IMG/VR virus record: IMGVR_UViG_3300017971_000250
Location: 1-64,000 of that record
DNA length: 64,000 bases
Reading direction: 5' to 3' (one strand)
Source: a virus
Shown: piece by piece, positions 10,224 to 57,700 of the stretch
How positions within the stretch are numbered: the stretch's first letter is position 1
Layout of the letters: each line of letters begins with the position of its first letter
Translations under genes and position numbers: made by a program
Notes under the pieces: model-generated
Told to the model about the DNA's origin: nothing
The model's input: only the letters and a program-made list of their open reading frames with translations
The model's database searches: none

Positions 10224-12880
10224 GCCGCCTCCAGAATCGAGACGCCGCCTTCCTTCACCGCCCGGAAGGTCCGCTCGAAGACGTCGCTCATCGCAGGCGC
10301 GTGCGAGATCACCACGATCGAGTGCCGCTTCGCCCGCAGGTGAGTCAGTAGGTCCACGACGCGCGCCTGCCCGGTAGCGTCCAGGCCGTCGAGCGCCTCG
10401 TCCATGATCAGCAGGTCGATGGCCGCCCGCTCGCGCCGGGCAACCAGGTCCATCAGCGCCAGGTCGGCCGCGATGGTTATCTTCCTCCACTGGCCTCCGC
10501 TCGGCTGGACGTTGCCCGCGCCCTCGACGTCGACGACGATGCTGAACTTGTCTCGCTTGCCGCCGCCCTTGAGCGCCGCCTCGGTATCGTAGGCGACCCG
10601 GACATCCCCATCGCTCAAGACCTCCAGGTAGCCGTTCGTCAGGTCGGCAAGCTCGCCGATGATGTCGTCGAGGATCTGACTGCGCAGGCCCTGGTTGCCG
10701 AAGCCGCGCACCCAAAACTCCGCGACCGACACTGCCTCCTCCGCGCGGTCTCGCTCGCCCTTCGCCGCATCAATCTCGCCCGCCAGCCGTTTGCGCTCCT
10801 TCCCCACCGCCGCCAGCCTCTTCGACAATCGCTCTGCTGTCTGCTGCAAGGTCCGCACCTGCTCGGCGACCCCGTCGATCCCGACCAGGTCCCGCCGCGC
10901 CGCTTCGAGTCCATCCCTGATCGCATCCCGATCCTTGACCTCCTGCTCTAGCTCGCGTTCGTCCTCCTCGGCGCTGCTGAGTGCCTTCACCGCAGCCGCA
11001 CGCTCCTTGTCCGCCTTCAATGCCTTGCTCGTATGCGCCGCCGCCGCCCTCTTCAGAGATTCGATCGTGGCCGCGACGGTCTCCGCCCCGGTCGGCGTCC
11101 CGCATTCCGGGCACTTGCCTTCGTCCACGAAGGCCGCAACGCGGTCCAGCTTCTCGGAAGCCGCGCGCGTCTCCGCCTGGCTCGTCTGCCGCAGTCCGGC
11201 GATCTTGCTCGATAGCTCCCGCTGCTGCTGCCGGAGCGCCCGCAGGTCGCCTTCGAGGTCACCGGACTCCTCCAACGTCGCCTCCGCCTCGGAGATTGTT
11301 TCGACCAGCGCCTGACGCCCCGCCGTCCGAACCTTGAGCCGTTCCTGCTGCTCCCGGTTCTCCTGAAGGTCGTCTTTGATGCCCTGAAGGTCCTGCCCCT
11401 GCAACGCGGTCTCCAACGGTACGATCCGCGCCGCCGCCGCGTCGCGCTCGCGCTCGGCTGCGGTCCGCTCAGCCTTCACGAACTCCAGCGCCAGGTCCAG
11501 ACCGTCCAGCCGCAGCACCCGGAAGAGGATCGCCTTGCGCTCGGAGTCGGTCGTGCGAGGCATCGCAAACCGCGAGTGGTCGTCCTGCCCGTAGAGGACT
11601 GTCGAGCGGAAGGTTCGGAAGTCGAGCCCGAGCAGCGCCTCGATCTGTTTCTGCGTCTCGGTCATAACCGGCCGCGTGACGTCCTTGCCCGCGTGGGTCA
11701 GCGTCAGCGTGCCCTGCTTCTTGGTCCTCGTTCGGGTGACGAGGTAGGTCTCCCCATCGACGATAATCTCCTGCGTGCCGACCGCCTCCTTCGCCCCGCG
11801 CCGAATGACCTCCTCGTAGCGGTCGCCTTCGATCGTCTCCCCGAAAACGATCCACGACAGCAGCTTCGGTAGGTGGCTCTTGCCGCTATTATGGACCACA
11901 ACACCATTCGCAATGAAGCTGTCCGCGCCCGGGACAGTTATATCGTACACATCAGCCACTCCAGCGGGCTCAACCGAAAGAACAGTGTGGTTCACCGCCT
12001 CTCGTTCCCGCTTGGCACGGAATAACGCACGCATCGTCTCGCTGCGCTTGCGCCTCGTCTCCACGCTCTGCGCGCGTCTCGAATTCGCTGCGCGCATCCT
12101 CGCCTTCGTTTCGGCCGTATGGTGCTTCCCCTTCATCCCACGAGGATGAATCCCCGTTCTCTGCCACCCCAATTTGCCAGCTCGGTTACGCTCGCTCGTA
12201 TGCTGCGAGAGATGCTCTCCACGATTCTTCCATTCCAGATTCCCAATGGAATGATCGAACGGATTACCGTTCAGATGATGAACCTGCTTGTCCCGGAAAC
12301 GCGGTCCGTGTACGGCCCTGCAGACAAATTGCTGCTCACTCACAGCCTGCGAACGTCCCGTCCAATGAATCAGCGTCCTCCACCCTCCCGCCCCTCTCCG
12401 ATACATCGAACACAATCGATCTCCGGGACGAAGATCCCCCAAAGCCCTCCACGTTTGCCCGTCCGAAAGAAGGACCGGATGATCAGCAGTCCCAACAAGC
12501 TCCTGTGGCGGGATGTATTTTTCACCCTGCCCCGCCCCCTGTCGCGTCGCATACTTCGAAAGCATCACCCGAATCACGGGGGCGGACTTCTTGGTCAAAA
12601 CAACTCGCGAAGCTCTCCGAATCACAATTCGCCCATCCGACCACGCATAAACCCAGGGGCGCTCTCCCACCAAATCCCCGATCGGGATCCCTTTTGGAAA
12701 CCGACGCAGATCGCGTGGACAATCAATCAACGTCTCTCCCACTAAACAGCCGTTCGAGCCCGCCGAGGTGGTGTCGTGATTGTCGCCGTCGATCAGGGTG
12801 AGCCCGGGAAGGCTCCAGTCGAACTCGACCTCTTTGAAGGGACCGAAATCACGCCCGCTCATCTTGCCGAATTGGATCAT
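10220..12880 (-). CDS. sbcC: SbcC/Rad50/gp46-like recombination ATPase, intein-containing
   Basis: Walker A GSNG|SGKS split by an intein, coiled coils, Zn-hook CPEC, signature PSGGQ, Walker B LLIMDE, ISH. Confidence 0.92.
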   Translation of the reverse strand: MIQFGKMSGRDFGPFKEVEFDWSLPGLTLIDGDNHDTTSAGSNGCLVGETLIDCPRDLRRFPKGIPIGDLVGERPWVYAWSDGRIVIRRASRVVLTKKSAPVIRVMLSKYATRQGAGQGEKYIPPQELVGTADHPVLLSDGQTWRALGDLRPGDRLCSMYRRGAGGWRTLIHWTGRSQAVSEQQFVCRAVHGPRFRDKQVHHLNGNPFDHSIGNLEWKNRGEHLSQHTSERNRAGKLGWQRTGIHPRGMKGKHHTAETKARMRAANSRRAQSVETRRKRSETMRALFRAKREREAVNHTVLSVEPAGVADVYDITVPGADSFIANGVVVHNSGKSHLPKLLSWIVFGETIEGDRYEEVIRRGAKEAVGTQEIIVDGETYLVTRTRTKKQGTLTLTHAGKDVTRPVMTETQKQIEALLGLDFRTFRSTVLYGQDDHSRFAMPRTTDSERKAILFRVLRLDGLDLALEFVKAERTAAERERDAAAARIVPLETALQGQDLQGIKDDLQENREQQERLKVRTAGRQALVETISEAEATLEESGDLEGDLRALRQQQRELSSKIAGLRQTSQAETRAASEKLDRVAAFVDEGKCPECGTPTGAETVAATIESLKRAAAAHTSKALKADKERAAAVKALSSAEEDERELEQEVKDRDAIRDGLEAARRDLVGIDGVAEQVRTLQQTAERLSKRLAAVGKERKRLAGEIDAAKGERDRAEEAVSVAEFWVRGFGNQGLRSQILDDIIGELADLTNGYLEVLSDGDVRVAYDTEAALKGGGKRDKFSIVVDVEGAGNVQPSGGQWRKITIAADLALMDLVARRERAAIDLLIMDEALDGLDATGQARVVDLLTHLRAKRHSIVVISHAPAMSDVFERTFRAVKEGGVSILEAA
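11888..12748 (-). mobile_element. intein (287 aa) with in-frame HNH and NUMOD3-like endonuclease, inserted in the SbcC P-loop
   Basis: Starts CLVGET; block B GTADHP; VHHLNGNPFDHSIGNLE (HNH); GKHHTAETKARM; ends VYDITV...NGVVVHN followed by Ser. Confidence 0.93.
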
Positions 12881-19075: not shown

Positions 19076-22000
19076 CTACTGGCGCACCTGATCAAACTGG
19101 ATCGGGCAAACTTCGTCGGCAATGCAGATCGCCTCCGCCGCCGTCCAATCCGGCTCCTTCGCGGAATCCACAAGCGCCTGCGAGACTTCGATTTGCCAGC
19201 CGCGCTTGCCGATGCGCGACCACACCTTGGAGAAGTTATCGTGCAGCCATTTCTCATTCGGAACGAGCGCGCGCAACGCGCCCGCCTTCAGGAGCGCCAG
19301 CGCGACGCCACGATGGCAGCGCCGCCGATCGACGCGCTCCGCGAAGTCAACGAAGTCCTGATATGGCTGCGTCTTCACAATCGCGCCGACCGCAGCCGGA
19401 CCGACGCCTTTGATCGTGATCAGGCCCGCAACGATGTCCCGCTTATCGAGCCCCCACGTCCGGCCCGCGAGGTTCACGTCGGGCGGCAGGACGCGCACTC
19501 GCAGTCGTCGCGCCTCGCCCACAAAACGGTTTCGTGCCTCCTCCCCGGGAGTGTGGGTCAGCAGCGCCCACACGAATTCCGTGGGGAAGTAGGTCTTCAA
19601 GTACATCTCCCGGTAGGCGATCAGGCCGTAGGCGGTCGCGTGGCTGTTATGGCTTACGATTCCGTTCGAGAGGGCAAAGAGGTGGGGCGAATCGACTTCG
19701 AGGTCAACCATCGGCCTCGGTCCCAGGGAACGAATCGATACAAGTCGCCGATACAGATAAGGCCCGGCTGCGGATTCCGGATCGCGCTGAGGACCAGATC
19801 GCGACACCACTCCCGCAAATGACCGCCCGTTGTGAAACAATCCAAAGAAATCCGGACCATCGCAAACATCCGCCGGGCCGCCTCCTGATTGAGCATCGCA
19901 TCGCGTTCCAAAACCAGTACCAATCGCTCCTCCCCAAAAATCGGACGAAAGTGATGCAGCCCATCCACCTCGATCCATTCTCCCGGCAAGACGAAATCGA
20001 CCTGTCTCCTTTTCAACCCACATCGCACCTGCGCGTCTCGTCTCGCACCCGGAACTAGATCTGCAATACATTCCTCCAAACGAGACCTTGTACGACGACG
20101 CGACCCGGCCGCCGACATTGCCCGACCTCGCGCAAGAATCGCGGCGATCTTCTCGGGATTCCTGCACCGCCATTCGCGGAGGACTTTCGAACGCCGCTCC
20201 TGAATGTCCGCACGAGCCGAAGTCTTCTTCGCGGTTTCGGATCGAATCCGCTGAAAGCGCTCTCGATACTGATAGCACACCCTCTTCAACGTCTCGGACC
20301 GAATCCGACGACGCACCCCAGGAAACTTCGAGCAAGTCCGAGAATGATTCCATTTCTCCGCTCTGGTTCGAAAAACGAGATCGCAGCACGTCGCCCGCCA
20401 TCCCCCGGGACGTGCTCGGAATGGCCGCCCACGCAACCGCCGCTTTGAAATCAACGACCTGCCGAAGCGACAGGATTCCCTTGTTTGTGAGGAACCGATG
20501 CCCGATCGAACACGTGACTTTCGAACCATCATCGAAGGTTGCCTCCAGTGCCTCAACAAACCCATGGTCATGAACCGCACGAACCGACGCCGGGCGTGCC
20601 CCCCGAGGCCCGCAGACATAGACAAGATCCCCTTGCCGGATTTCGCCCGCAGGTTTCTCTCCATCTGCAGTAGCAACACCCTGTGCGATGTCAACCGATT
20701 TATTGAAGATGTAAGCTCCCGCGTGCATCATCGCCTCGGCCAGGCCCTCCGCCTCCCGCTTCTGCATCCCGCGCGATATCGCGCCATCGACGAATGGCCG
20801 GAGCGCCTTCTTGACCGCCGCCTTGCCGTGCTTCTTACCGACCATCTTGCGGACCTTGTCGGCGTCCTCCGGGGTGTAACCACCTAGCTCGCGCAGCAAT
20901 CGGATCATGTGTTCCTGGTAGATAATCGCGCCCCGGCTCTCACGGCAGATCGATGCCACTATCGGATGCGTCCCCTTTGCCGCCCGGACGCCGATTCGTT
21001 TTCGCTTCCGATAGGTGTCCGAAAGACCGCTGTGCGACACGCCGGGTCGCCCGAGCGCGTTCAGGATAGCGACCTCCTCGAAGCTCTCGAACTTGAGCCC
21101 CTCGCAGAGCCGGTGCGCGAGCGGAGTGTCTAGCTGAAAAATCCCCGCGAGGTTGCGCCGCGTGAACCCCACCAGCACCTTCGGATCGTTCAGACTGATC
21201 GCAGTCAGGTCGGGCGCTCGCTTGCCTCGCCGCTCGATCGCCTCCAGGGCGTCACGGATCACCTTCAGGTTGTGGAGCCCGAGGATGTCCAGCTTGACGA
21301 GCCCGAGCGCCTCGACGCCGTGCATATCGAGCGCCGTGACCGGGACGCGCTCGCCGTTGCTCTCGCGCGACTCCAGGGGGCAAACGTCGACGATCGGCTC
21401 GGGGGAGATCACGACGCCCGCAGGATGAACCGTGAGCGCCTTCGTCGAACCCTCCAGCTTCAGCGCCGTCTCGACGACGGGCGGATACTTCTGTGCGAAC
21501 TTCCTGCAAGCCGCCTCATTCTCAAACGGCCCCTTGAGCCCGCCCTCGTCTATCTCGGTCTGCGTGATGTACTTCTCCGGGATGAGCGGGATCAATTCCT
21601 CGATCTCCCGAATCGGAACCTGGAAAACGCGCCCGACGTCTTTCAGGCACTGCCGCCCGCGCATCGTCGAGCGCGCCGAGATGCGAGCGAAGTGATCGGC
21701 CCCGTAGACCGCCTGCAGATGCGCCAGCACCTCGTCGCGCTGGTCGCTGGCAAAATCACAGTCGATGTCCGGCAGATCGCTGTTTGAAACAAGAATGCCA
21801 CCAGCGAAGTATTCATGCTGGCCCTCTACCGAGAGGTCATAGACGGGACCGGAGAGAACGATTCGTCTGATGCTCGTGATCGTCGCTCGCGCCAGCGAGC
21901 CCATCGCAGCTTGTTCGCGCAACTCAGCGAGCAACATTCCTGACTCCTGGTCACGGGGGCGCGGAACATCGCTCCACACCACACACATGCACGATCGATC

Positions 22001-24274
22001 ATCTTGAACCCGGCATATTTGATGCGTCTGGACGTTTCCACAAGGACATCCGTCAATCCCGCCCCCCTGATACTCCTGACAAAATCGTCCTGATAGAGCA
22101 CCCGTAGGCGATCGCCAAGAAGCCGCTTCGCCAAGATCAGCTTGCGTCCATCCTGACCACGCCATCCCTTCAATTCGTAGAAGAGATCCTCCTGTGGGAG
22201 ATAGAAGTCGGGGCAATACGTCGTCCCGTCTGCCAACCGAAACCGCTCCGCCTCGTATCGGTAGTCCATGCCCATCCGGCGCAACAAACGCGCGAAGTCC
22301 GCCTCCAGCCCTGAACGCACGAAATGGCCCAGGTCGGGACGGTATCCGGCCCGCCCCCGCGAATGCGTTCTTGTTCCTTGCAAAGCCCGCCCACACTTCC
22401 GGGAGCACGCCTTCTGCCGCTTCCCGCCCTTGAATTCCATTCCACAAACACAACACTGTCGATGGTGACTCCGAACAACCGCAAGGTAACGACATCGCTC
22501 GCTGCAATAGATTTGATTCCCAGTCCTGCGACGAAATACTCGGTCGCACCAAGGACATTCCGTTTCGCTCCCCACCTTCACCCACACGGGAGGACGGCTG
22601 CGTTTCGCCGGAGGAATCATCATCGAACGGGTATGGCATCTCCGACTGCAATACTTTCTCTTCTGCGACGGATAGGCCCTGATTGCCATCCCGCAAACAG
22701 GACAGTAGCTCGTCACCAACTTCGAGCTTACAGGCCGCCGCCTTCTCGTACCCTTCTTTGCGCCTGCCTCGCCTGAAGATTCTGTGCCCATAAGTACAGC
22801 GTACTAGAAAAGGCTTTCCGTCGCTAGTCGTTCCTTCGATTTTCACCCCCGGCTCTTTGCCCCACCGCGCATGGCGTGCCAGAACCCGCCGCAAGCCCAT
22901 CCGCGTCCAAACCATCATCCCCGGCCGGACGTCATGGATCGGAAGTGCCCCCACAGAAGTCGACACCAGCGTCTCCCCGGGAAAACACCGCCCGGGAGCG
23001 AGGAAGCGCTCGAACATGAGCCCGTGCCGGATCGGATCGATCTGCGTGATCCCGAGCAGGTAGGCGACCAGGCTGCCACCAACCGAACCGCGCCCCGGCC
23101 CGACCATGATCCCTTCCTGCTTCGCCCAGTCGTAAAGCTCTTTGACCGCGAGGAAGTAGTCGACGACGCCACGCTCTTCGATTGTCGCTAGCTCGTGATT
23201 GAGACGGGTCTCGTATTTGTCGTCCGCCCCATGAAGCAATCCACCGTTCGAGAGATACGCCAGCGCCAACAGGCAGCTTTCCTGTAGATAATCGGCGTGC
23301 GTATGGCCGACCAAGACCTTGATCGGCGGCACGACGGGATCCCGGCGCGGTAGCTCGCTCAGCGCCGCGCACCGTTCGGAGACCTCCCTCGTGCGCAGGA
23401 CAGCCCCGTCCGTAAAGGTCGCCCGCAGCCGGGGATGATTCGCCCTGAACGCCCGGACCATTTCGTCCTGGCTTCGCAGATGATACTCGCGCGTCTTGAG
23501 CCGGAACCTGGTCGGGCTCAGTAGGACGCCATGGGTATGAATCGCAAGCAGCGCTTCCTGGTAACGCCAGTCGTCCGCGTCAGGATAATGCGCGTCCTGT
23601 GTGGCGACCGCAGGAATGCCGAGCGCCTCGCCGATCTCGTAGAGCGCCTCGTTGGCGACCCGTAACTCGTCCAGGTCGTGCGGCATGATTTCCAGATAGA
23701 AGCGGTCGCCGAGCCGCTCCTGGAATTCCTCCGCGAGCGCGATCGCGTCCGAAGTCCGTCCCTGGTTCACCGCCAGCGAAACCGGCCCGACCATGCAACC
23801 GCTCAGAACGATCAGGCCCTCGGAGTGTTTCCAGAACGTCGGCAGGTCCACGCACGGCCGCCAGTGAAATCCCTCCAGCCAGGCGATCGAAGTTAGCCGG
23901 TAGAGATTGCGGAGCCCGGTTTCGTTCATGGCCAGGAGCGTCAGGTGCTGTCTGGTGAGTCCGCGCCGCTCCTCTTCAGCCTTCAGGATTTCGCGCCGCC
24001 TCCGGTACGGGGTCCCTTTGGTGATCTCTTTGATCTCTTCCTTCGAGAACCCGCGCCACGCCATGTCCTCGATCACATAAAGCTCGACGCCGAAGATCGG
24101 CCGGATGCCGAGACGCTGCGCCGCCTTGTCGAAGTCGTGAATCCCGCGCAGCGTGCCGTGCTCCGTAGTCGCGATCGCGTCGTGACGCATTTCGAGCGCC
24201 CGCTTGATGAACGCGGCAGGCTTCCTGAAACCGTCGAATCCCGTGTGATCGGTGTGAACGTGAAGATGAATCAT
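19076..24274 (-). CDS. dnaE: DNA polymerase III alpha subunit (PHP + Pol) with two inteins
   Basis: HLHVHT PHP start (ATGA-coupled at 24274), GPGRGS, FERFL, PDIDCD, HPAGVVI, KLDILG, YQE, FNK|SHA, PPDVN, IKGVG. Confidence 0.96.
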   Translation of the reverse strand: MIHLHVHTDHTGFDGFRKPAAFIKRALEMRHDAIATTEHGTLRGIHDFDKAAQRLGIRPIFGVELYVIEDMAWRGFSKEEIKEITKGTPYRRRREILKAEEERRGLTRQHLTLLAMNETGLRNLYRLTSIAWLEGFHWRPCVDLPTFWKHSEGLIVLSGCMVGPVSLAVNQGRTSDAIALAEEFQERLGDRFYLEIMPHDLDELRVANEALYEIGEALGIPAVATQDAHYPDADDWRYQEALLAIHTHGVLLSPTRFRLKTREYHLRSQDEMVRAFRANHPRLRATFTDGAVLRTREVSERCAALSELPRRDPVVPPIKVLVGHTHADYLQESCLLALAYLSNGGLLHGADDKYETRLNHELATIEERGVVDYFLAVKELYDWAKQEGIMVGPGRGSVGGSLVAYLLGITQIDPIRHGLMFERFLAPGRCFPGETLVSTSVGALPIHDVRPGMMVWTRMGLRRVLARHARWGKEPGVKIEGTTSDGKPFLVRCTYGHRIFRRGRRKEGYEKAAACKLEVGDELLSCLRDGNQGLSVAEEKVLQSEMPYPFDDDSSGETQPSSRVGEGGERNGMSLVRPSISSQDWESNLLQRAMSLPCGCSESPSTVLCLWNGIQGREAAEGVLPEVWAGFARNKNAFAGAGRIPSRPGPFRAFRAGGGLRAFVAPDGHGLPIRGGAVSVGRRDDVLPRLLSPTGGSLLRIEGMAWSGWTQADLGEAASWRSPTGALSGRFCQEYQGGGIDGCPCGNVQTHQICRVQDDRSCMCVVWSDVPRPRDQESGMLLAELREQAAMGSLARATITSIRRIVLSGPVYDLSVEGQHEYFAGGILVSNSDLPDIDCDFASDQRDEVLAHLQAVYGADHFARISARSTMRGRQCLKDVGRVFQVPIREIEELIPLIPEKYITQTEIDEGGLKGPFENEAACRKFAQKYPPVVETALKLEGSTKALTVHPAGVVISPEPIVDVCPLESRESNGERVPVTALDMHGVEALGLVKLDILGLHNLKVIRDALEAIERRGKRAPDLTAISLNDPKVLVGFTRRNLAGIFQLDTPLAHRLCEGLKFESFEEVAILNALGRPGVSHSGLSDTYRKRKRIGVRAAKGTHPIVASICRESRGAIIYQEHMIRLLRELGGYTPEDADKVRKMVGKKHGKAAVKKALRPFVDGAISRGMQKREAEGLAEAMMHAGAYIFNKSVDIAQGVATADGEKPAGEIRQGDLVYVCGPRGARPASVRAVHDHGFVEALEATFDDGSKVTCSIGHRFLTNKGILSLRQVVDFKAAVAWAAIPSTSRGMAGDVLRSRFSNQSGEMESFSDLLEVSWGASSDSVRDVEEGVLSVSRALSADSIRNREEDFGSCGHSGAAFESPPRMAVQESREDRRDSCARSGNVGGRVASSYKVSFGGMYCRSSSGCETRRAGAMWVEKETGRFRLAGRMDRGGWAASLSSDFWGGAIGTGFGTRCDAQSGGGPADVCDGPDFFGLFHNGRSFAGVVSRSGPQRDPESAAGPYLYRRLVSIRSLGPRPMVDLEVDSPHLFALSNGIVSHNSHATAYGLIAYREMYLKTYFPTEFVWALLTHTPGEEARNRFVGEARRLRVRVLPPDVNLAGRTWGLDKRDIVAGLITIKGVGPAAVGAIVKTQPYQDFVDFAERVDRRRCHRGVALALLKAGALRALVPNEKWLHDNFSKVWSRIGKRGWQIEVSQALVDSAKEPDWTAAEAICIADEVCPIQFDQVRQ
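19646..20698 (-). mobile_element. DnaE intein 2 (351 aa), inserted at YIFNK|SHATAY
   Basis: Starts with Ser (SVDIAQGV); block B TCSIGHRFLT; ends MVDLEVDSPHLFALSNGIVSHN followed by Ser. Confidence 0.92.
19654..20532 (-). CDS. Vsr/DUF559-like endonuclease in the +1 frame inside intein 2
   Basis: SRLE...QVDFVLPGEWIEVDGLHHF...RDAMLN...MVRI. GGAGG (20542-20546) lies 9 nt before ATG 20532. The frame is open from 20694. Confidence 0.83.
   Translation of the reverse strand: MMVRKSRVRSGIGSSQTRESCRFGRSLISKRRLRGRPFRARPGGWRATCCDLVFRTRAEKWNHSRTCSKFPGVRRRIRSETLKRVCYQYRERFQRIRSETAKKTSARADIQERRSKVLREWRCRNPEKIAAILARGRAMSAAGSRRRTRSRLEECIADLVPGARRDAQVRCGLKRRQVDFVLPGEWIEVDGLHHFRPIFGEERLVLVLERDAMLNQEAARRMFAMVRISLDCFTTGGHLREWCRDLVLSAIRNPQPGLICIGDLYRFVPWDRGRWLTSKSIRPTSLPSRTES
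21782..22987 (-). mobile_element. DnaE intein 1 (402 aa), inserted at FLAPGR|SDLPDID
   Basis: Starts CFPGETLV; block B CTYGHRIF; LEVGD; ends VYDLSVEGQHEYFAGGILVSN followed by Ser. Removing it restores the DnaE catalytic region. Confidence 0.93.
21826..22791 (-). CDS. Zn-finger + PD-(D/E)XK endonuclease in the +1 frame inside intein 1
   Basis: Four CxxC...CSxxC modules; RSGLEADFARLL...YRYE...YCPDFYL...FYELKG. Offset (24274-22791) mod 3 = 1. Start uncertain: ATG 22791, TTG 22719 or GTG 22716. Confidence 0.85.
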   Translation of the reverse strand: MGTESSGEAGAKKGTRRRRPVSSKLVTSYCPVCGMAIRAYPSQKRKYCSRRCHTRSMMIPPAKRSRPPVWVKVGSETECPWCDRVFRRRTGNQIYCSERCRYLAVVRSHHRQCCVCGMEFKGGKRQKACSRKCGRALQGTRTHSRGRAGYRPDLGHFVRSGLEADFARLLRRMGMDYRYEAERFRLADGTTYCPDFYLPQEDLFYELKGWRGQDGRKLILAKRLLGDRLRVLYQDDFVRSIRGAGLTDVLVETSRRIKYAGFKMIDRACVWCGAMFRAPVTRSQECCSLSCANKLRWARWRERRSRASDESFSPVPSMTSR

Positions 24275-24798
24275 GGCGTCTGTGTTCCTATGTGACCGAG
24301 AGGCACCACGCGCATCTTGAGCTTGCCGCTCGGAGATCGCGGGGCGGTGTGGTTCAACCACGCCTCGACGATATCGCGTAGCTCGGCGGGAAAGGTCTCG
24401 GTCAGCATCCACTCCAGATAGCCGCGCCCTTCCTGTGGATCACTCGCTAGCTCTGAAACGCTGTGCCCCGCATGGCGACCGAATTGGAGAATCGCATCAG
24501 TCGGCACACCCCCGAGCGTCGACGGCACAATCGCATAGTTTGCCCGGGGACGCTGCTTCCCGCGCGATCCGGGAACCTTACTCTCTCTCATCGCTGAAAG
24601 GTCCACGGCGCGATTCGGTGTCTTCACAACCCGGTCACCTTCCTGCCCGCCCATCCCCTCGATCAGATCCTTGAGTTGGGCTTCCGAATCCTTCTCGTCC
24701 GCCGTTGCTCCTGGAACCGCGTCGTCGCCGCCTTCGTCCTTCTTCTTGGGGAGGAACTTGCGGCGCATCTCGTCGAGTGATTTGCCTTCAGCGCTCAT
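24271..24798 (-). CDS. hypothetical protein with C-terminal FG(K/R)H..G...YLxW (DUF3820/ExoX C-terminal-like) motif
   Basis: LQFGRHAGHSVSELA...GYLEWML; start MSAEGKSLDEMRRKFLPK. Confidence 0.65.
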   Translation of the reverse strand: MSAEGKSLDEMRRKFLPKKKDEGGDDAVPGATADEKDSEAQLKDLIEGMGGQEGDRVVKTPNRAVDLSAMRESKVPGSRGKQRPRANYAIVPSTLGGVPTDAILQFGRHAGHSVSELASDPQEGRGYLEWMLTETFPAELRDIVEAWLNHTAPRSPSGKLKMRVVPLGHIGTQTP

Positions 24799-53924: not shown

Positions 53925-54743
53925 CTACAACACATGGGACACGCGCGACTTGCGGCGGTCCTCAAAAAGCTCCCTTCGCATCGTGCTCGCCGCAGTCGTC
54001 CGCACCAGCGGGATCGAGTATGGGGTCGGTGTGAGGCCCCGGAATCGACTCGGCTTCAGGACGTCGACGGTCTGCCCTCCCACCAGGAATTCCTTTGACG
54101 GATTGCGCCTCCGTAGGAGGTCGCCCTTGAGCGCCTCCTTGTAGTGCAGCCGGGCAAGCTCCTCCCAGGTATCCCCGGTCCGGACGATGTGATGAAACGT
54201 ATCACGGTCCAGATCGGCGAGGCTCGGAATCTCGATCCCGAACGGCTCGTAGTGCTTCAGGCGCATCCGGAACTGGACGGTGCGTAGCTGCTGTCCCGGG
54301 CCGGTCCCGAGCAGCGCCCCGTAGAGCCGATCAGCAATGACCCCGGTGATCGTATCGTTTGCCCGGGGCTCGCCGTACTCAATGCCGCCGACCGATTCGA
54401 TAATGACGCTGGTGTCGATGATGAAGTCGCCCCAGGAGAAGGTCCAGAGGGGCGGCCGCTTGAGCGTCGCGTTCGCGCGCACCGCCGCGATGAGCGCCTC
54501 GACCTTGTCCGAAATCGTGTCGGTCGTCCGCTCCGCGAAGAGCAGCGCCCGGAAGGAGTAGGTTTCCGATTCCTGCGTGACGTATTGGAGCACGGGATGA
54601 TCGCGTCCGAAGGCGGACTTCTCCGCCCAATTGGACGCCACGTTTCGAATGAAACGATCCGGGACGAACTGGAACTCGATCGCCCGGTATCCTTCGTCGT
54701 TCGGATCCAACCTCGGCTTCGGTGCTCGTTTCAGAATACCCAT
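53925..54743 (-). CDS. tail tube initiator (gpU-like) with LysM domain
   Basis: FQFVP...LQY...PP...FSWG; HIVRTGDTWEELA..HY LysM. Confidence 0.8.
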   Translation of the reverse strand: MGILKRAPKPRLDPNDEGYRAIEFQFVPDRFIRNVASNWAEKSAFGRDHPVLQYVTQESETYSFRALLFAERTTDTISDKVEALIAAVRANATLKRPPLWTFSWGDFIIDTSVIIESVGGIEYGEPRANDTITGVIADRLYGALLGTGPGQQLRTVQFRMRLKHYEPFGIEIPSLADLDRDTFHHIVRTGDTWEELARLHYKEALKGDLLRRRNPSKEFLVGGQTVDVLKPSRFRGLTPTPYSIPLVRTTAASTMRRELFEDRRKSRVSHVL

Positions 54744-54753
54744 CGCTCTGCTC

Positions 54754-57700
54754 CTAGACCCTGACCGGGGTCATGTCGACGGCGCGCACGATCAGCGACC
54801 GCCGCTGCCACGGTTTCGTCTTCGCGCCCGCCCGGTCCCGGATGCCGACGCGATACTTCTCTGTGGCGACTGCGACTTTCTGACCGTCGATCTCGACGTT
54901 GGTGACATGAGTCATGTCAATTGGTGGGATCTCTTCTCCTTCCTCCTCTCCACGCTTCTCTCTGATCGTCTCCGCTAGCTGCTCCTCAAGTGATTTAGGT
55001 TTTCCCCCATACAGCTCCTCCATCATCTTCTCATAAGGCGTTACCGGATGCGTGGGGGCGAGCGAAATTTCCGATTCGCTAAGCTCGCGGAGTCCCTGGA
55101 CCGCACCCGACAGGTCGATTCCGATCTTCTTCGCAATTCCAGAAATCGAATCCAGGATAGTCGCCAAGATTCCCGCTGCCGTCCGCATTGGGGTGAGGAG
55201 CCAATTCACAAGCTGGACGCCGAATTCTCCGACCTTCCGTGCCGCCTCCGCGAACAGTTTGATCATCGCCGGAAGCACCATCGCAACGTATTTACCCGCT
55301 TGAATGAAGAGCCAGACGAGGGGACGGAACGCGGCCCATAGGATCTTCCCGACGACCACTAGTCCTTTAATCGCCACTCCGATGAGTTTGAAGATGATCA
55401 CGAGCACGTCAGCAATCGGGCGCATCGCGGACATCCAGGTGCCGCCAACCTCACCCGCCGCCTGTCCGAACATACCCAATACATCCCCCATGACCGTCCG
55501 GAACAGATCACCGATCGGGGCGACGGCTTCCATGAACGCATCGATCACGGGCCCGAATATCAGGCTGAGTTTGTGCCAGGTTGTTCTCACGAATTCGATC
55601 GACTTTCCAAAGCCCGATGCAATAGCGCCGCCAATACGCCCAAACATCTCACCCGTGCTCTCGCCACGTTTCTGAAGTAGAAGCAGCAGCACACCCACGA
55701 TCGCCCCGACAATCCCGAGCGCCTTGAGTGATCCCGCCGCCGCCCCGGCACCTCGGGCAATCCAGGATCCCGCCCGGCCGAAGCGCCCGGCCGCGACGGC
55801 CGCCCCGATCAAAGCGCCCTCGGTCTTCGCCGTCGCCGGAGTCGTCCGCGCTGCCGCTGCCCCGATAGCCTGAAGCCCGGCCGCCGCCGCCGCCGTTCCG
55901 CCCGCCGCCTGGGTCCCCGCCGCCCCAAGGCCCCGAAGCGCACCGGCAGCCCCCGTGATGGGGCCTGTGGCTGTCGTAGCGGCCGTCCCTGCCTCTCCAA
56001 GCGCCGTGGCGGTAGCTTGGACCGGACCGGGAGCCGTTAGGGCCGCTGTGCGCAGCGCTCGCATTGCCGATGCCGCGCTGAGGGTTCCGCCCGCCGCCAT
56101 CTCGGCTTTGATGGCTTCGTCGCTCAGCGCCGTCGAGGTCCGGTAGATCGGCGTCGCCGCCTGGGAGGCCGCCGTACCAACCGCCGAGGTCCCGACCGCC
56201 GCCGCCTCGGTCGTAGCCGCTGCCGCTCCAGCCGCCGCGCCCAGGGTCCCGACGCCAGTAGCCGCCGCTGCTGACTCAGCACCGGCAGCAGCCGCTGATG
56301 TCCCCATCCCCAGTAGGCCGCCGCCGAGCCCAGTGACCACGCCGATTGCGCCCCGGACGATGTTGACCCCTCCGGTCAGGATTCCGAAGAGCCCGCCGAA
56401 GGCGAACTTCAAACCAACGACCGACAGCAACACCGGCCCGGCCACCGCGCCCACGAGCGCGATGGTCGTTGCGAAACGTGCCGCCGCGCGGATCCCTTCC
56501 TCACTCATTGACGTTAGTCCGAGCGCCTCGGCTCCACGCTTGACCGTATCGAAGAGCCCCGTGACCGCGTCGGCAATTCCCTGGACCGCCTCGAAGATCC
56601 CCCGAGCGATCGCAACCGCCGTCTCTGGATTGAGGAAGCTATCCTTCTCCGCCCCCATCATCACCGCAATCGAACCGACCGACTCCATCTGGTCCCGGAC
56701 ATTCTGGAGCGGGTCGGCAACGCCCGCCTGGACCGCGCGCATCCCGAAGACGATGCTGTTGAGCCCATCGATCACGCGCCCGATGGCGATAGCAAACGGC
56801 TCCTCGAATTTCTCCTCCAGGGTGATCCAGAATGCCTCGACGGACGCGCCCACCATCTTGAGCGCCCCCGAGACGTTCTTGAGCCGCGTATCGGCCATCC
56901 GCTTCGCGGCCCCGTCCGCACCCTCGAATTGCTTGGTCAACTCCTGGAGCCGTCCCGCCTCCGTCTTCAGGAGCGCATTCCCGGCACGCATCCCCCGGAT
57001 CCCGAATAGCGTCTGCAGCGCGCTCTCCTTCTGGACCGGGGTGAGCTTTTCGAGCCCTGTGCGAAGACGATCAACAACCGTTCCGAGACCGTAGGTTGTC
57101 ACGCTAACCTGGTGTGCCTGCAGCCCCATATCCATGAGCAGCTTCTTCGCCTGCTTCGATGGGCTCGCCAGGTGGATCAGCATTTGCGAGAAGTTTGTCC
57201 CCGCCATCGACGCGCGGACACCACGGTCGGCCATGACCGCAAAGGCGGCCGTCGTCTCTTCGAGGCTGATATTCATCATCGACGCCTGCGCCGCGCCGTA
57301 GACGAACGACTCCCCGAGCATTCGGATGTTCGTATTGGCGCTGGCCGCCGCGTTCGCAAGGACATCGGCAACGTGCCCCGCGTCGCTGGCGTCGAGGTTC
57401 ATCCCCCGGACCGCGATGGAGATGATATCGGCGGCCTCGGCCATCTCCAGCCCTTCGGCTGCGGCTGCGGCAAGAACACCCGGGGTCGCCCCCAGGACTT
57501 CGTTGACGTTGAAGCCCGCGCGGGAGAGAATCTCCATCGCGTTAGCGACCTGGGTTCCGGTGTAGACGGTCTGTAGAGATAGATCGACGGCGTTCTGACG
57601 CAGCCGACTCATGTCCTCGCTGGTTGCATTCGTGATCGCCTGGACGCCGGACATTCCCTCGTTGAACTTCGTCGCGGAGCGGACGCCCATAGCGACCGGG

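Follow-up and report, generated by a model that had tools for sequence, protein, structure and literature searches.

The phage dnaE gene analysed here very probably contains a class-1 intein with a captured homing-endonuclease gene nested in its +1 frame, the polymerase frame across it having been purged of stops by selection. In textbook inteins the homing endonuclease is an in-frame domain. We propose that the ribosomes making the polymerase read through the nuclease gene and that, because they must do so, selection would have removed all the polymerase-frame stops by changes that are silent in the nuclease. The polymerase-frame product of the overlap would then be a meaningless linker, probably disordered, which leaves with the intein on splicing. 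Intein 1 presumably splices, and the nuclease, which may be translated on its own from an internal ATG on the dnaE mRNA, would cut intein-less dnaE alleles of co-infecting phages, by which the whole element would spread.

Intein 1 and the gene nested in it

The gene lies on the minus strand of an 85-kb phage record, and all coordinates are those of the window, the stretch of 64,000 nt that was analysed. The ORF encoding DnaE (DNA polymerase III alpha) extends over 19076-24412 (minus strand), has 1778 codons counted from a GTG and hosts two inteins; its probable start is the ATG at 24274, which gives a 1732-aa form, and a 1732-aa protein (P0155) is on record. Pfam recognizes the PHP, DNA_pol3_alpha, finger and HHH_6 domains in DnaE. 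Frame 0 contains no stop from codon 1 to codon 1779, and on this ground a fractured gene or split intein was rejected for intein 1.

Intein 1 (21782-22987, minus strand) comprises 402 codons, DnaE residues 476-877, begins with Cys1 and ends with Asn followed by Ser, and is inserted directly before the catalytic PDIDxD motif of DnaE. Its boundaries are exact, as 11 intein-less phage DnaE relatives align without a gap across the PGR/SDLPDID junction, and the 402 intein columns hold at most four residues in any of them. The N-terminal splicing region (22706-22987, minus strand, frame 0; intein residues 1-94) carries block A, CFPGET, and block B, TYGH (22784-22795), and the C-terminal splicing region (21782-21892, minus strand, frame 0) carries blocks F and G, VYDLSVEG...ILVSN, followed by Ser, so that the normal splicing blocks read at both ends in the earlier note are all present. 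The splicing residues Cys476 (the nucleophile, residue 1), TYGH, Asn877 and Ser878 (+1) are likewise in place, the penultimate residue being Ser in place of the usual His. The profile of the intein C-terminal region, TIGR01443, matches intein 1 at 17.2 bits (cut-off 15.6), Pfam matches at the two ends fall below their cut-offs (Intein_splicing, 26.8 vs 35.8; Hint_2, 18.4 vs 28.4), and a single-sequence AlphaFold2 model of frame-0 intein 1 (pLDDT 35) neither shows nor excludes a HINT fold or disorder. We read intein 1 as a class-1 intein, set in a phage Pol III alpha gene where the catalytic PDID motif lies.

The +1 frame of intein 1 holds an ORF at 21826-22791 (minus strand) that is open through 321 codons and is closed by a TAG. 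Its ATG (22789-22791) falls within the TYGH codons of block B and its TAG (21826-21828) in the VYDLSVEG codons of block F. The nested nuclease occupies the usual position of an endonuclease, between splicing blocks B and F and on the same strand, and its conserved part (residues 30-297; 21901-22704, minus strand), which comprises three zinc modules, the nuclease core, a helical region and a fourth zinc module, falls entirely between the splicing regions of intein 1 (alignment A1). The host frame is contiguous across this intact out-of-frame endonuclease ORF. Its middle part, a linker of 269 codons overlapping the nuclease gene (21893-22699, minus strand), is free of stops and has no Pfam match at E≤10, and G, S, P and R together make up 39% of its residues vs 25% in the exteins. 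In the centre of intein 1, GC content by codon position comes to follow the +1 frame. What the earlier note had described from the letters, a complete ORF in the +1 frame with its stop inside the C-terminal block, set against roughly 270 stop-free and motif-less filler codons of the host frame, is what we find.

Four CxxC...CSxxC zinc modules (C30/33/48/52, C79/82/96/100, C113-116/129/133 and C269/272/287/291) and the nuclease motifs RSGLE, PDF and ELKG are present in the +1 ORF, in agreement with the earlier reading of a zinc-finger nuclease. The predicted PD-(D/E)XK core, which is T7 endonuclease I-like (residues 142-261; 22009-22368, minus strand), includes E163, P194-D195 and E206-x-K208, all invariant or at least 90% conserved among the 45 sequences of alignment A1. 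A word-indexed protein search with the nested nuclease returned a single weak match; an exhaustive protein search at E≤1e-3 returned 3,585 homologues, of which the best shares 40% identity over 232 residues, and all 4 invariant and 17 near-invariant residues of the family are kept in the nested nuclease. Gene callers missed the nested gene, protein collections being without the nuclease though the host protein is present.

Profile and structure searches match the +1 protein to T7 endonuclease I and to PD-(D/E)XK folds. With the family profile A1, the matches include T7 endonuclease I (1m0d; E=1.6e-13) and Bax1 (E=4e-8); on its own the nuclease sequence reaches 21.6 bits against PF05367, short of the 29.1 that Pfam requires, and its closest homologue, P0005, passes at 30.0 bits. 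The AlphaFold2 model of the nuclease has a mean pLDDT of 83.8, with the core above 90, and its structure matches by VIA-align are TnsA (Z 7.9), VRR-NUC (7.1), Vsr (6.8) and I-Bth0305I (6.8), while Foldseek against the PDB gave weak matches only (E≥0.02). The model thus predicts a restriction-endonuclease-like PD-(D/E)XK fold. The +1 frame of intein 1 carries a genuine and intact protein-coding gene, the product of which is predicted to combine a T7-endonuclease-I-like PD-(D/E)XK core with four zinc modules.

Selection on the two reading frames

Across the overlap the dnaE frame contains 0 stops, as against a mean of 13.4 expected from synonymous shuffling of the +1 ORF, and none of the 2000 shuffles reached zero; by the same shuffling, the third frame has 12 stops vs 9.8 expected. 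Any host-frame stop would begin with a T at the wobble position of a nuclease codon, and a change from T to C at that position is always synonymous. The nuclease has 68 codons that end in T and 69 that begin with AA, AG or GA, and there is not one case of adjacency between the two kinds vs 14.7 expected. The pyrimidine-ending nuclease codons are T0:C27 before codons beginning AA, AG or GA vs T68:C52 elsewhere (Fisher p=5.8e-9). The polymerase frame is held open by selection and not by chance, and the earlier note's suggestion to that effect is upheld by the absence of stops together with the wobble bias. This provides a codon-level reason why a +1 arrangement is tolerable, as a wobble T-to-C change removes a host stop and is silent in the nuclease. 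Since stops were avoided through nuclease-silent changes only, the nuclease protein would itself have been under selection while the stops were being purged.

The second intein of the gene (19646-20698, minus strand), inserted at FNK/SHATAY, has the same layout as intein 1. Its +1-frame ORF (19654-20694, minus strand), a Vsr/DUF559-like nuclease, has a likely start at ATG 20532 with a GGAGG upstream at 20542-20546; it has no match in Pfam, PHROG or NCBIfam and none by phmmer against the PDB. The relatives of intein 2 (L021-L025) share its nested layout, and among them the substitutions at host positions 1/2/3 number 118/57/30 in the overlap vs 51/36/91 in the 5' extein. Across the overlap the substitutions fall on the wobble position of the nuclease, and the amino acids of the host frame are free to change; in the intein-2 family the +1 endonuclease frame is under purifying selection. 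In the pair L022 and L024 the intein differs by 4% and the exteins by 20-26%, a divergence compatible with transfer of intein 2.

Expression, alternative explanations and origin

No Shine-Dalgarno-like motif precedes the nuclease ATG at 22791, a motif that 29 of the 43 first ATGs in the window have (background 13%). A promoter scan found no sigma-70-like promoter near the nuclease start, and the mRNA structure there is only mildly weak, within the least-structured 14% of windows. An ATG without a ribosome-binding site, in a frame that is +1 relative to the host, would suit programmed +1 frameshifting by ribosomes that translate the polymerase, by which the N-extein and the N-terminal intein half are fused to the nuclease. 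We consider this very improbable, as a +1-frame stop at codon 536, four codons ahead of the ATG (within codon 541), confines any shift to the short stretch leading to the first zinc module, neither a slippery site nor a stimulatory element was seen in that stretch, and the homologues of the nuclease are stand-alone proteins of equal length. The same want of a Shine-Dalgarno motif and promoter would also be expected of a silent or decaying relic, in which the need for the polymerase keeps the host frame open while the +1 ORF, neither expressed nor active any more, is intact only through its recent arrival; the homing-cycle model predicts decay after fixation (bioRxiv 10.1101/2025.01.02.630785), and no relatives of intein 1 were found in which purifying selection on the nuclease could be seen. 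A relic is nonetheless unlikely, since the 321 codons are all open, whereas the converse shuffling, of frame-0 codons, leaves 4.6 stops expected in the +1 frame and frees it of stops in only 0.25% of shuffles. Moreover, the nested nuclease retains every invariant and near-invariant residue of its family, its predicted fold is confident, and the purging of stops by nuclease-silent changes alone implies selection on its protein meanwhile.

It is also conceivable that the overlap has a true dual function and that the frame-0 middle is a working domain, for example a splicing regulator, as its 269 residues are fully open and the single-sequence model neither shows nor excludes structure in them. 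Yet no family matches this stretch at E≤10, G, S, P and R are over-represented in it, its codon-position GC pattern follows the +1 frame and, in the intein-2 family, the host frame is free at the amino-acid level across the overlap, all of which leaves a dual function with very little probability. Finally, the nuclease could be truly in frame and displaced by two compensating indels, an artefact of sequencing or assembly; the sequence is metagenome-assembled at a depth of about 14x, and contigs, not raw reads, were compared. Against this, the DnaE protein is identical in the JGI, ENA and Logan assemblies, and Logan contigs from two DNA runs matched over 3.7 kb without a difference or an indel; no RNA run was listed as carrying the sequence. 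These contigs are equal in length and may derive from the sample that yielded the record, which makes them weak as independent support. In addition, the layout recurs in the second intein of dnaE and in that intein's relatives on other contigs, and neither the stop-free host frame (0 vs 13.4) nor the T0:C27 bias can arise from indels. That a simple assembly indel cannot explain the layout, as the earlier note had argued, is thus borne out, and we regard an artefact as next to inconceivable.

We prefer, then, a nuclease gene captured by an intein, and the relatives of the nuclease bear on where it came from. Homologues at viral loci are free-standing ORFs in 80 of 80 cases. In the tree of the core the nested nuclease adjoins P0005, within a set with 96% support that is made up of 40 viral proteins, all free-standing, and 32 short proteins from the database and contains no in-frame intein copies; a related branch is the in-frame endonuclease domain of bacterial dnaE inteins at a different site. 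The nuclease is one of a large group of phage genes, free-standing and pairing repeated zinc modules with a T7-endonuclease-I-like PD-(D/E)XK core; most likely a gene of this free-standing kind inserted itself into a smaller intein. Scans of viral contigs with the nested nuclease and with P0005 gave no close copy, an extein-based scan gave 18 distant phage dnaE loci (≤36% identity), none carrying intein 1, and a search with the intein region of DnaE gave, besides the window's own protein, nothing but an unrelated intein in a terminase; by protein searches and by viral-contig and extein scans no relatives of intein 1 with the same nested layout were found. A divergent contig that co-occurs in the two DNA runs joins 21341 to 23081 with 530 letters between them, where about 533 would be expected without intein 1; as it matches only 28-30 bases per side, an intein-less relative is at best hinted at.

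It is possible, though we put it forward tentatively, that one nuclease family is seen here in three states of a proposed pathway, free-standing, nested out of frame and fused in frame, and that the nested state is a real evolutionary intermediate. From the +1-nested state, a later pair of indels could yield a canonical in-frame intein endonuclease. If true, the three states would provide direct comparative support for the view that large inteins originated by splicing first, with the endonuclease captured later. Within the same reading the family may, with similar reserve, be one not yet listed among intein endonucleases.

Comparison with known systems

Endonucleases encoded by overlapping genes bear on whether large inteins originate by capture of free-standing endonuclease genes, on the uncoupling of endonuclease expression from host-protein synthesis and on how gene callers miss nested genes. 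The earlier note took the architecture to be undescribed, a claim that does not hold, as intein endonucleases encoded out of frame are on record from 1998 and from preprints of 2025-2026. Out-of-frame or antisense homing endonucleases inside contiguous inteins have already been described (bioRxiv 10.1101/2025.01.02.630785; bioRxiv 10.64898/2026.09.14.751524), and Gorbalenya 1998 is cited in the former for antisense LAGLIDADG endonucleases and in the latter for homologues that lie in other reading frames of the dnaX intein.

A close parallel in layout is offered by the actinobacteriophage inteins of Gosselin, Arsenault and Gogarten (bioRxiv 10.1101/2025.01.02.630785), in which, as here, the phage intein is contiguous, its host frame is free of stops and the endonuclease has an ORF of its own, in a different frame and flanked by the splicing blocks; the origin proposed there, an intein invaded by a free-standing endonuclease gene, is also the one proposed here. 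On the same strand they have an endonuclease VII-like gene, read in frame 3, their Vsr-like and LAGLIDADG genes being antisense, whereas the cargo of intein 1 consists of zinc modules and a T7-endonuclease-I-like nuclease in frame +1. Pol III alpha is named among the intein hosts in that preprint, the text of which has no match for 'endonuclease I', 'zinc' or 'DnaE'. Like intein 1, the cyanobacterial dnaX intein (Phillips, DeSimone and Gogarten, bioRxiv 10.64898/2026.09.14.751524) resides in a replisome gene and has an overlapping-frame endonuclease; the endonuclease frame is under purifying selection, the host frame is relaxed across the overlap, and secondary invasion of a mini-intein is the suggested origin. 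That endonuclease is a LAGLIDADG enzyme encoded by a '+2ORF' within a bacterial gene, for which numerous relatives allowed dN/dS analysis, whereas intein 1 has a PD-(D/E)XK nuclease in +1 of a phage gene and no close relatives were found.

Fractured genes (Dassa et al. 2009, PMC2677866) likewise have a free-standing gene of PD-(D/E)XK fold, Vsr-like (EDxHD), at the endonuclease position of an intein, and phage-type replication genes, dnaE included, are affected; the host is there split into two ORFs and rejoined by trans-splicing, whereas intein 1 is contiguous. The insertion element of the ShiLan phage methylase (PMC11855218), which may or may not be an intein, is reported to resemble intein 1 in having no stops in the host frame and in concealing an endonuclease, there an HNH; host gene and nuclease both differ. 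Bacterial dnaE inteins from Chloroflexota, Patescibacteria, Acidobacteriota and Acidimicrobiia MAGs have zinc-module and endonuclease-I-like domains of the same nuclease family as intein 1 (44-56% core identity, the zinc modules also matching in some) and share dnaE as the host. Unlike in intein 1, the nuclease is in frame there and the intein is in the finger domain, some 200-300 residues past PDID, and these copies fall outside the 96%-supported clade of the nested nuclease. Intein 1 opens no new category, its layout having already been published; what is new here is the nuclease family and the insertion site, and to the known systems it adds a cargo of zinc modules with a T7-endonuclease-I-like core, placed at the catalytic motif of a polymerase.

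Overlapping nuclease and polymerase frames in intein 1

The Pol III alpha (DnaE) gene lies on the minus strand at 19076-24412, within a window drawn from an 84.9-kb IMG/VR virus record, and encodes PHP, polymerase, finger and HHH domains; ATG 24274 is its probable start, giving a protein of 1732 residues that is itself on record. It carries two inteins on the same strand, intein 1 (22987-21782, DnaE residues 476-877) and intein 2 (20698-19646, residues 1239-1589). Alignment with eleven intein-less phage relatives showed that intein 1 is an exact insertion, located after the conserved ...PGR and before S-x-x-PDIDxD, where it adjoins the catalytic aspartates. Intein 1 begins with Cys1, contains TYGH as block B and closes with VYDLSVEG...ILVSN, after which comes Ser; in the penultimate position, Ser stands in place of the usual His. 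The NCBIfam C-terminal intein model scores above its cut-off and the Pfam intein models match both ends below theirs; splicing of intein 1 is predicted.

Across dnaE the +1 frame contains 39 stops in all and is open only within intein 1 (codons 536-862) and intein 2 (codons 1228-1586), and the 42 stops of the +2 frame are spread throughout. The +1 ORF of intein 1 (21826-22791, minus strand, 321 codons) begins with an ATG within the TYGH codons and ends with a TAG within those of block F. The conserved part of the nuclease (residues 30-297) lies wholly between the splicing regions, where intein endonucleases canonically reside, and so what is functional in one frame coincides only with unimportant sequence in the other. 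Codon-position GC in the exteins, the DnaE parts outside the inteins, is 0.67/0.42/0.79, and this high-low pattern shifts to the +1 frame in the centre of intein 1. The 269-residue linker of the polymerase frame that overlaps the nuclease gene has an excess of G, S, P and R. The nested layout, which the earlier note had read from the sequence, is confirmed.

An exhaustive HMMER search with the +1 protein yielded 3,585 homologues at E<=1e-3 (357 at 1e-10), most of them 200-400 residues long; the closest, P0005, shares its domain order, with 40% identity over 232 residues. When 45 family members are aligned, the +1 protein retains all four invariant residues (S160, E163, P194 and D195) and 17 of 17 near-invariant ones, among them E206, K208 and, of the 16 zinc-module cysteines, the eight that belong to modules one and two. 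Profile comparison links the family to T7 endonuclease I (1m0d, E=1.6e-13) and to Bax1. The nuclease core is hit by PHROG families that carry an endonuclease or Holliday junction resolvase annotation, and the match of a family named HNH endonuclease is limited to the zinc modules. The AlphaFold2 model built from the alignment has a mean pLDDT of 83.8, exceeding 90 in the core, and comparison of the core with PD-(D/E)XK nucleases gave Z values of 7.9 for TnsA, 7.1 for VRR-NUC, 6.8 for Vsr and I-Bth0305I and 6.4 for Bax1, which are middling by themselves and consistent with the sequence evidence. The search of both frames that had been proposed finds a zinc-module/PD-(D/E)XK nuclease family and fold in the +1 frame and no Pfam match at E<=10 in the frame-0 linker, and the +1 protein is predicted to act as a nuclease. 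Elsewhere in the window, 54692-54886 (plus strand) weakly matches the zinc-module part (E=6.6e-4, 33% identity) with two internal stops, possibly the relic of a further endonuclease gene.

Selection on the two frames

When the synonymous codons of the +1 ORF were shuffled (n=2000), keeping protein and codon content, a mean of 13.4 polymerase-frame stops appeared over the ORF and none of the 2000 shuffles was free of stops. There is no general shortage of stops, since the third frame contains 12 as compared to 9.8 expected. A host-frame stop requires a T-ending nuclease codon followed by one starting with AA, AG or GA; the 68 and 69 codons of these two kinds never adjoin, as opposed to 14.7 expected adjacencies. 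Accordingly, pyrimidine-ending codons of intein 1 are T0:C27 before AA/AG/GA and T68:C52 elsewhere (Fisher p=5.8e-9), and intein 2 shows the same wobble signature (T0:C17 versus T76:C55, p=1.6e-6). NNT and NNC always specify the same amino acid, and hence every host-frame stop can be removed with the nuclease protein untouched, which we propose is the reason that the +1 arrangement is viable. The shuffles and the wobble bias uphold the proposal that the polymerase frame is held open by selection.

Intein 2, inserted at FNK|SHATAY, is laid out like intein 1, its +1 cargo being an unrelated Vsr/DUF559-like nuclease with GGAGG (20542-20546) nine bases upstream of its likely ATG at 20532. The host frame is open through the +1 nuclease ORF in all five metagenome contigs with intein-2 relatives: L021, a dnaE fragment rich in GC whose insertion site is likewise FNK|SH; L022, L023 and L024, AT-rich phage dnaE genes; and L025, in which the sequence after the intein differs and is non-dnaE. 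Between L022 and L023, differences at host codon positions 1/2/3 number 118/57/30 in the nuclease core, most of them at the nuclease wobble position, 51/36/91 in the 5' extein and 16/11/32 in the N-terminal splicing block. This shows that intein-2-type layouts are maintained via selection on the nuclease frame. L022 and L024 differ by 4% in the nuclease core and by 20-26% in the exteins, suggesting recent transfer of their intein. Protein searches, viral-contig scans and 80 viral loci with the nuclease family revealed no intein-1 relative laid out in this way; by analogy with the intein-2 relatives, it too may be maintained by selection on its nuclease frame.

Expression and origin of the nested nuclease

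No Shine-Dalgarno-like motif precedes the intein 1 nuclease ATG, although one precedes 29 of the window's 43 first ATGs (background 13%). The mRNA around this start is only moderately unstructured, and no promoter-like site was found near the ATG. The identical DnaE protein is present in three assembly collections. The read-level check consisted of contigs of two sequencing runs, X1 and X2, which may derive from the source sample; over 3.7 kb they agree with the window at every base. An 18-kb contig from these runs (~11x depth) matches the window to either side of intein 1 (at 21341 and 23081) over stretches of 28-30 bases, with 530 bases between the matches versus 1739 in the window and 533 expected without intein 1. 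It may come from a divergent phage in the same runs whose dnaE lacks the intein, and if so, a potential target for homing, which is the presumed role of the +1 nuclease.

The family occurs in two other settings. All 80 viral loci obtained by family-alignment retrieval are free-standing ORFs of 230-500 codons, none with a second open frame across it. In bacterial genomes a related nuclease lies in frame within long ORFs at 39 of 41 loci, 34 with the dnaE-type PDxD motif, in MAGs of Chloroflexota, Patescibacteria, Acidobacteriota and Acidimicrobiia. In 29 mapped bacterial ORFs it falls several hundred residues beyond PDID and ahead of FNKSH, and in five database proteins (P0029, P0038, P0043, P0053 and P0072) Pfam places it within an intein splicing domain in the finger domain, from about residue 630. 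The bacterial inteins thus occupy a finger-domain site that differs from that of intein 1; a NUMOD3 motif often accompanies their nuclease. In a FastTree phylogeny of the nuclease core, whose resolution is limited by its 121 columns, the intein 1 nuclease adjoins P0005, both within a group with 96% support made up of 40 free-standing viral proteins plus 32 short ones from databases, without any in-frame bacterial copy. These sequences are most economically explained by the entry of a free-standing phage endonuclease gene into an intein. An insert with ~13 expected host-frame stops may at first have been tolerated by passing through a split-intein stage (Dassa et al. 2009). GC dips at both inteins (19650-20700 and 21750-22950) to 0.55-0.60 versus 0.62-0.67 in the flanks, and GC3 is 0.65 in the nested nuclease versus 0.79 in the exteins, consistent with foreign, partly ameliorated DNA.

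Relation to described inteins

The first reading of the sequence also noted a putative third intein at 11888-12748, hosted by an SbcC-like gene and carrying an HNH-NUMOD3 nuclease in frame; if real, endonucleases of the canonical and the out-of-frame kind would be combined in one phage. The interpretation in the earlier note holds in part: its architecture and the selection that keeps the polymerase frame open stand, and the nuclease may be made as it proposed, but its view that an out-of-frame intein nuclease was undescribed does not hold. Gosselin, Arsenault and Gogarten (bioRxiv 10.1101/2025.01.02.630785) reported actinophage inteins whose frame 3 holds an endonuclease VII-like gene, as well as antisense LAGLIDADG and Vsr-like genes, and proposed that free-standing endonuclease genes invade inteins. 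Phillips, DeSimone and Gogarten (bioRxiv 10.64898/2026.09.14.751524), who credit Gorbalenya 1998, described an out-of-frame LAGLIDADG gene under frame-specific selection in a cyanobacterial dnaX intein. What is new here is the cargo family of zinc modules with a T7-endonuclease-I-like core, which we did not find listed among intein endonucleases in the papers compared, the insertion site at the polymerase catalytic motif, the presence of two unrelated +1-nested nucleases within one gene, and a single nuclease family seen free-standing, nested and in frame.
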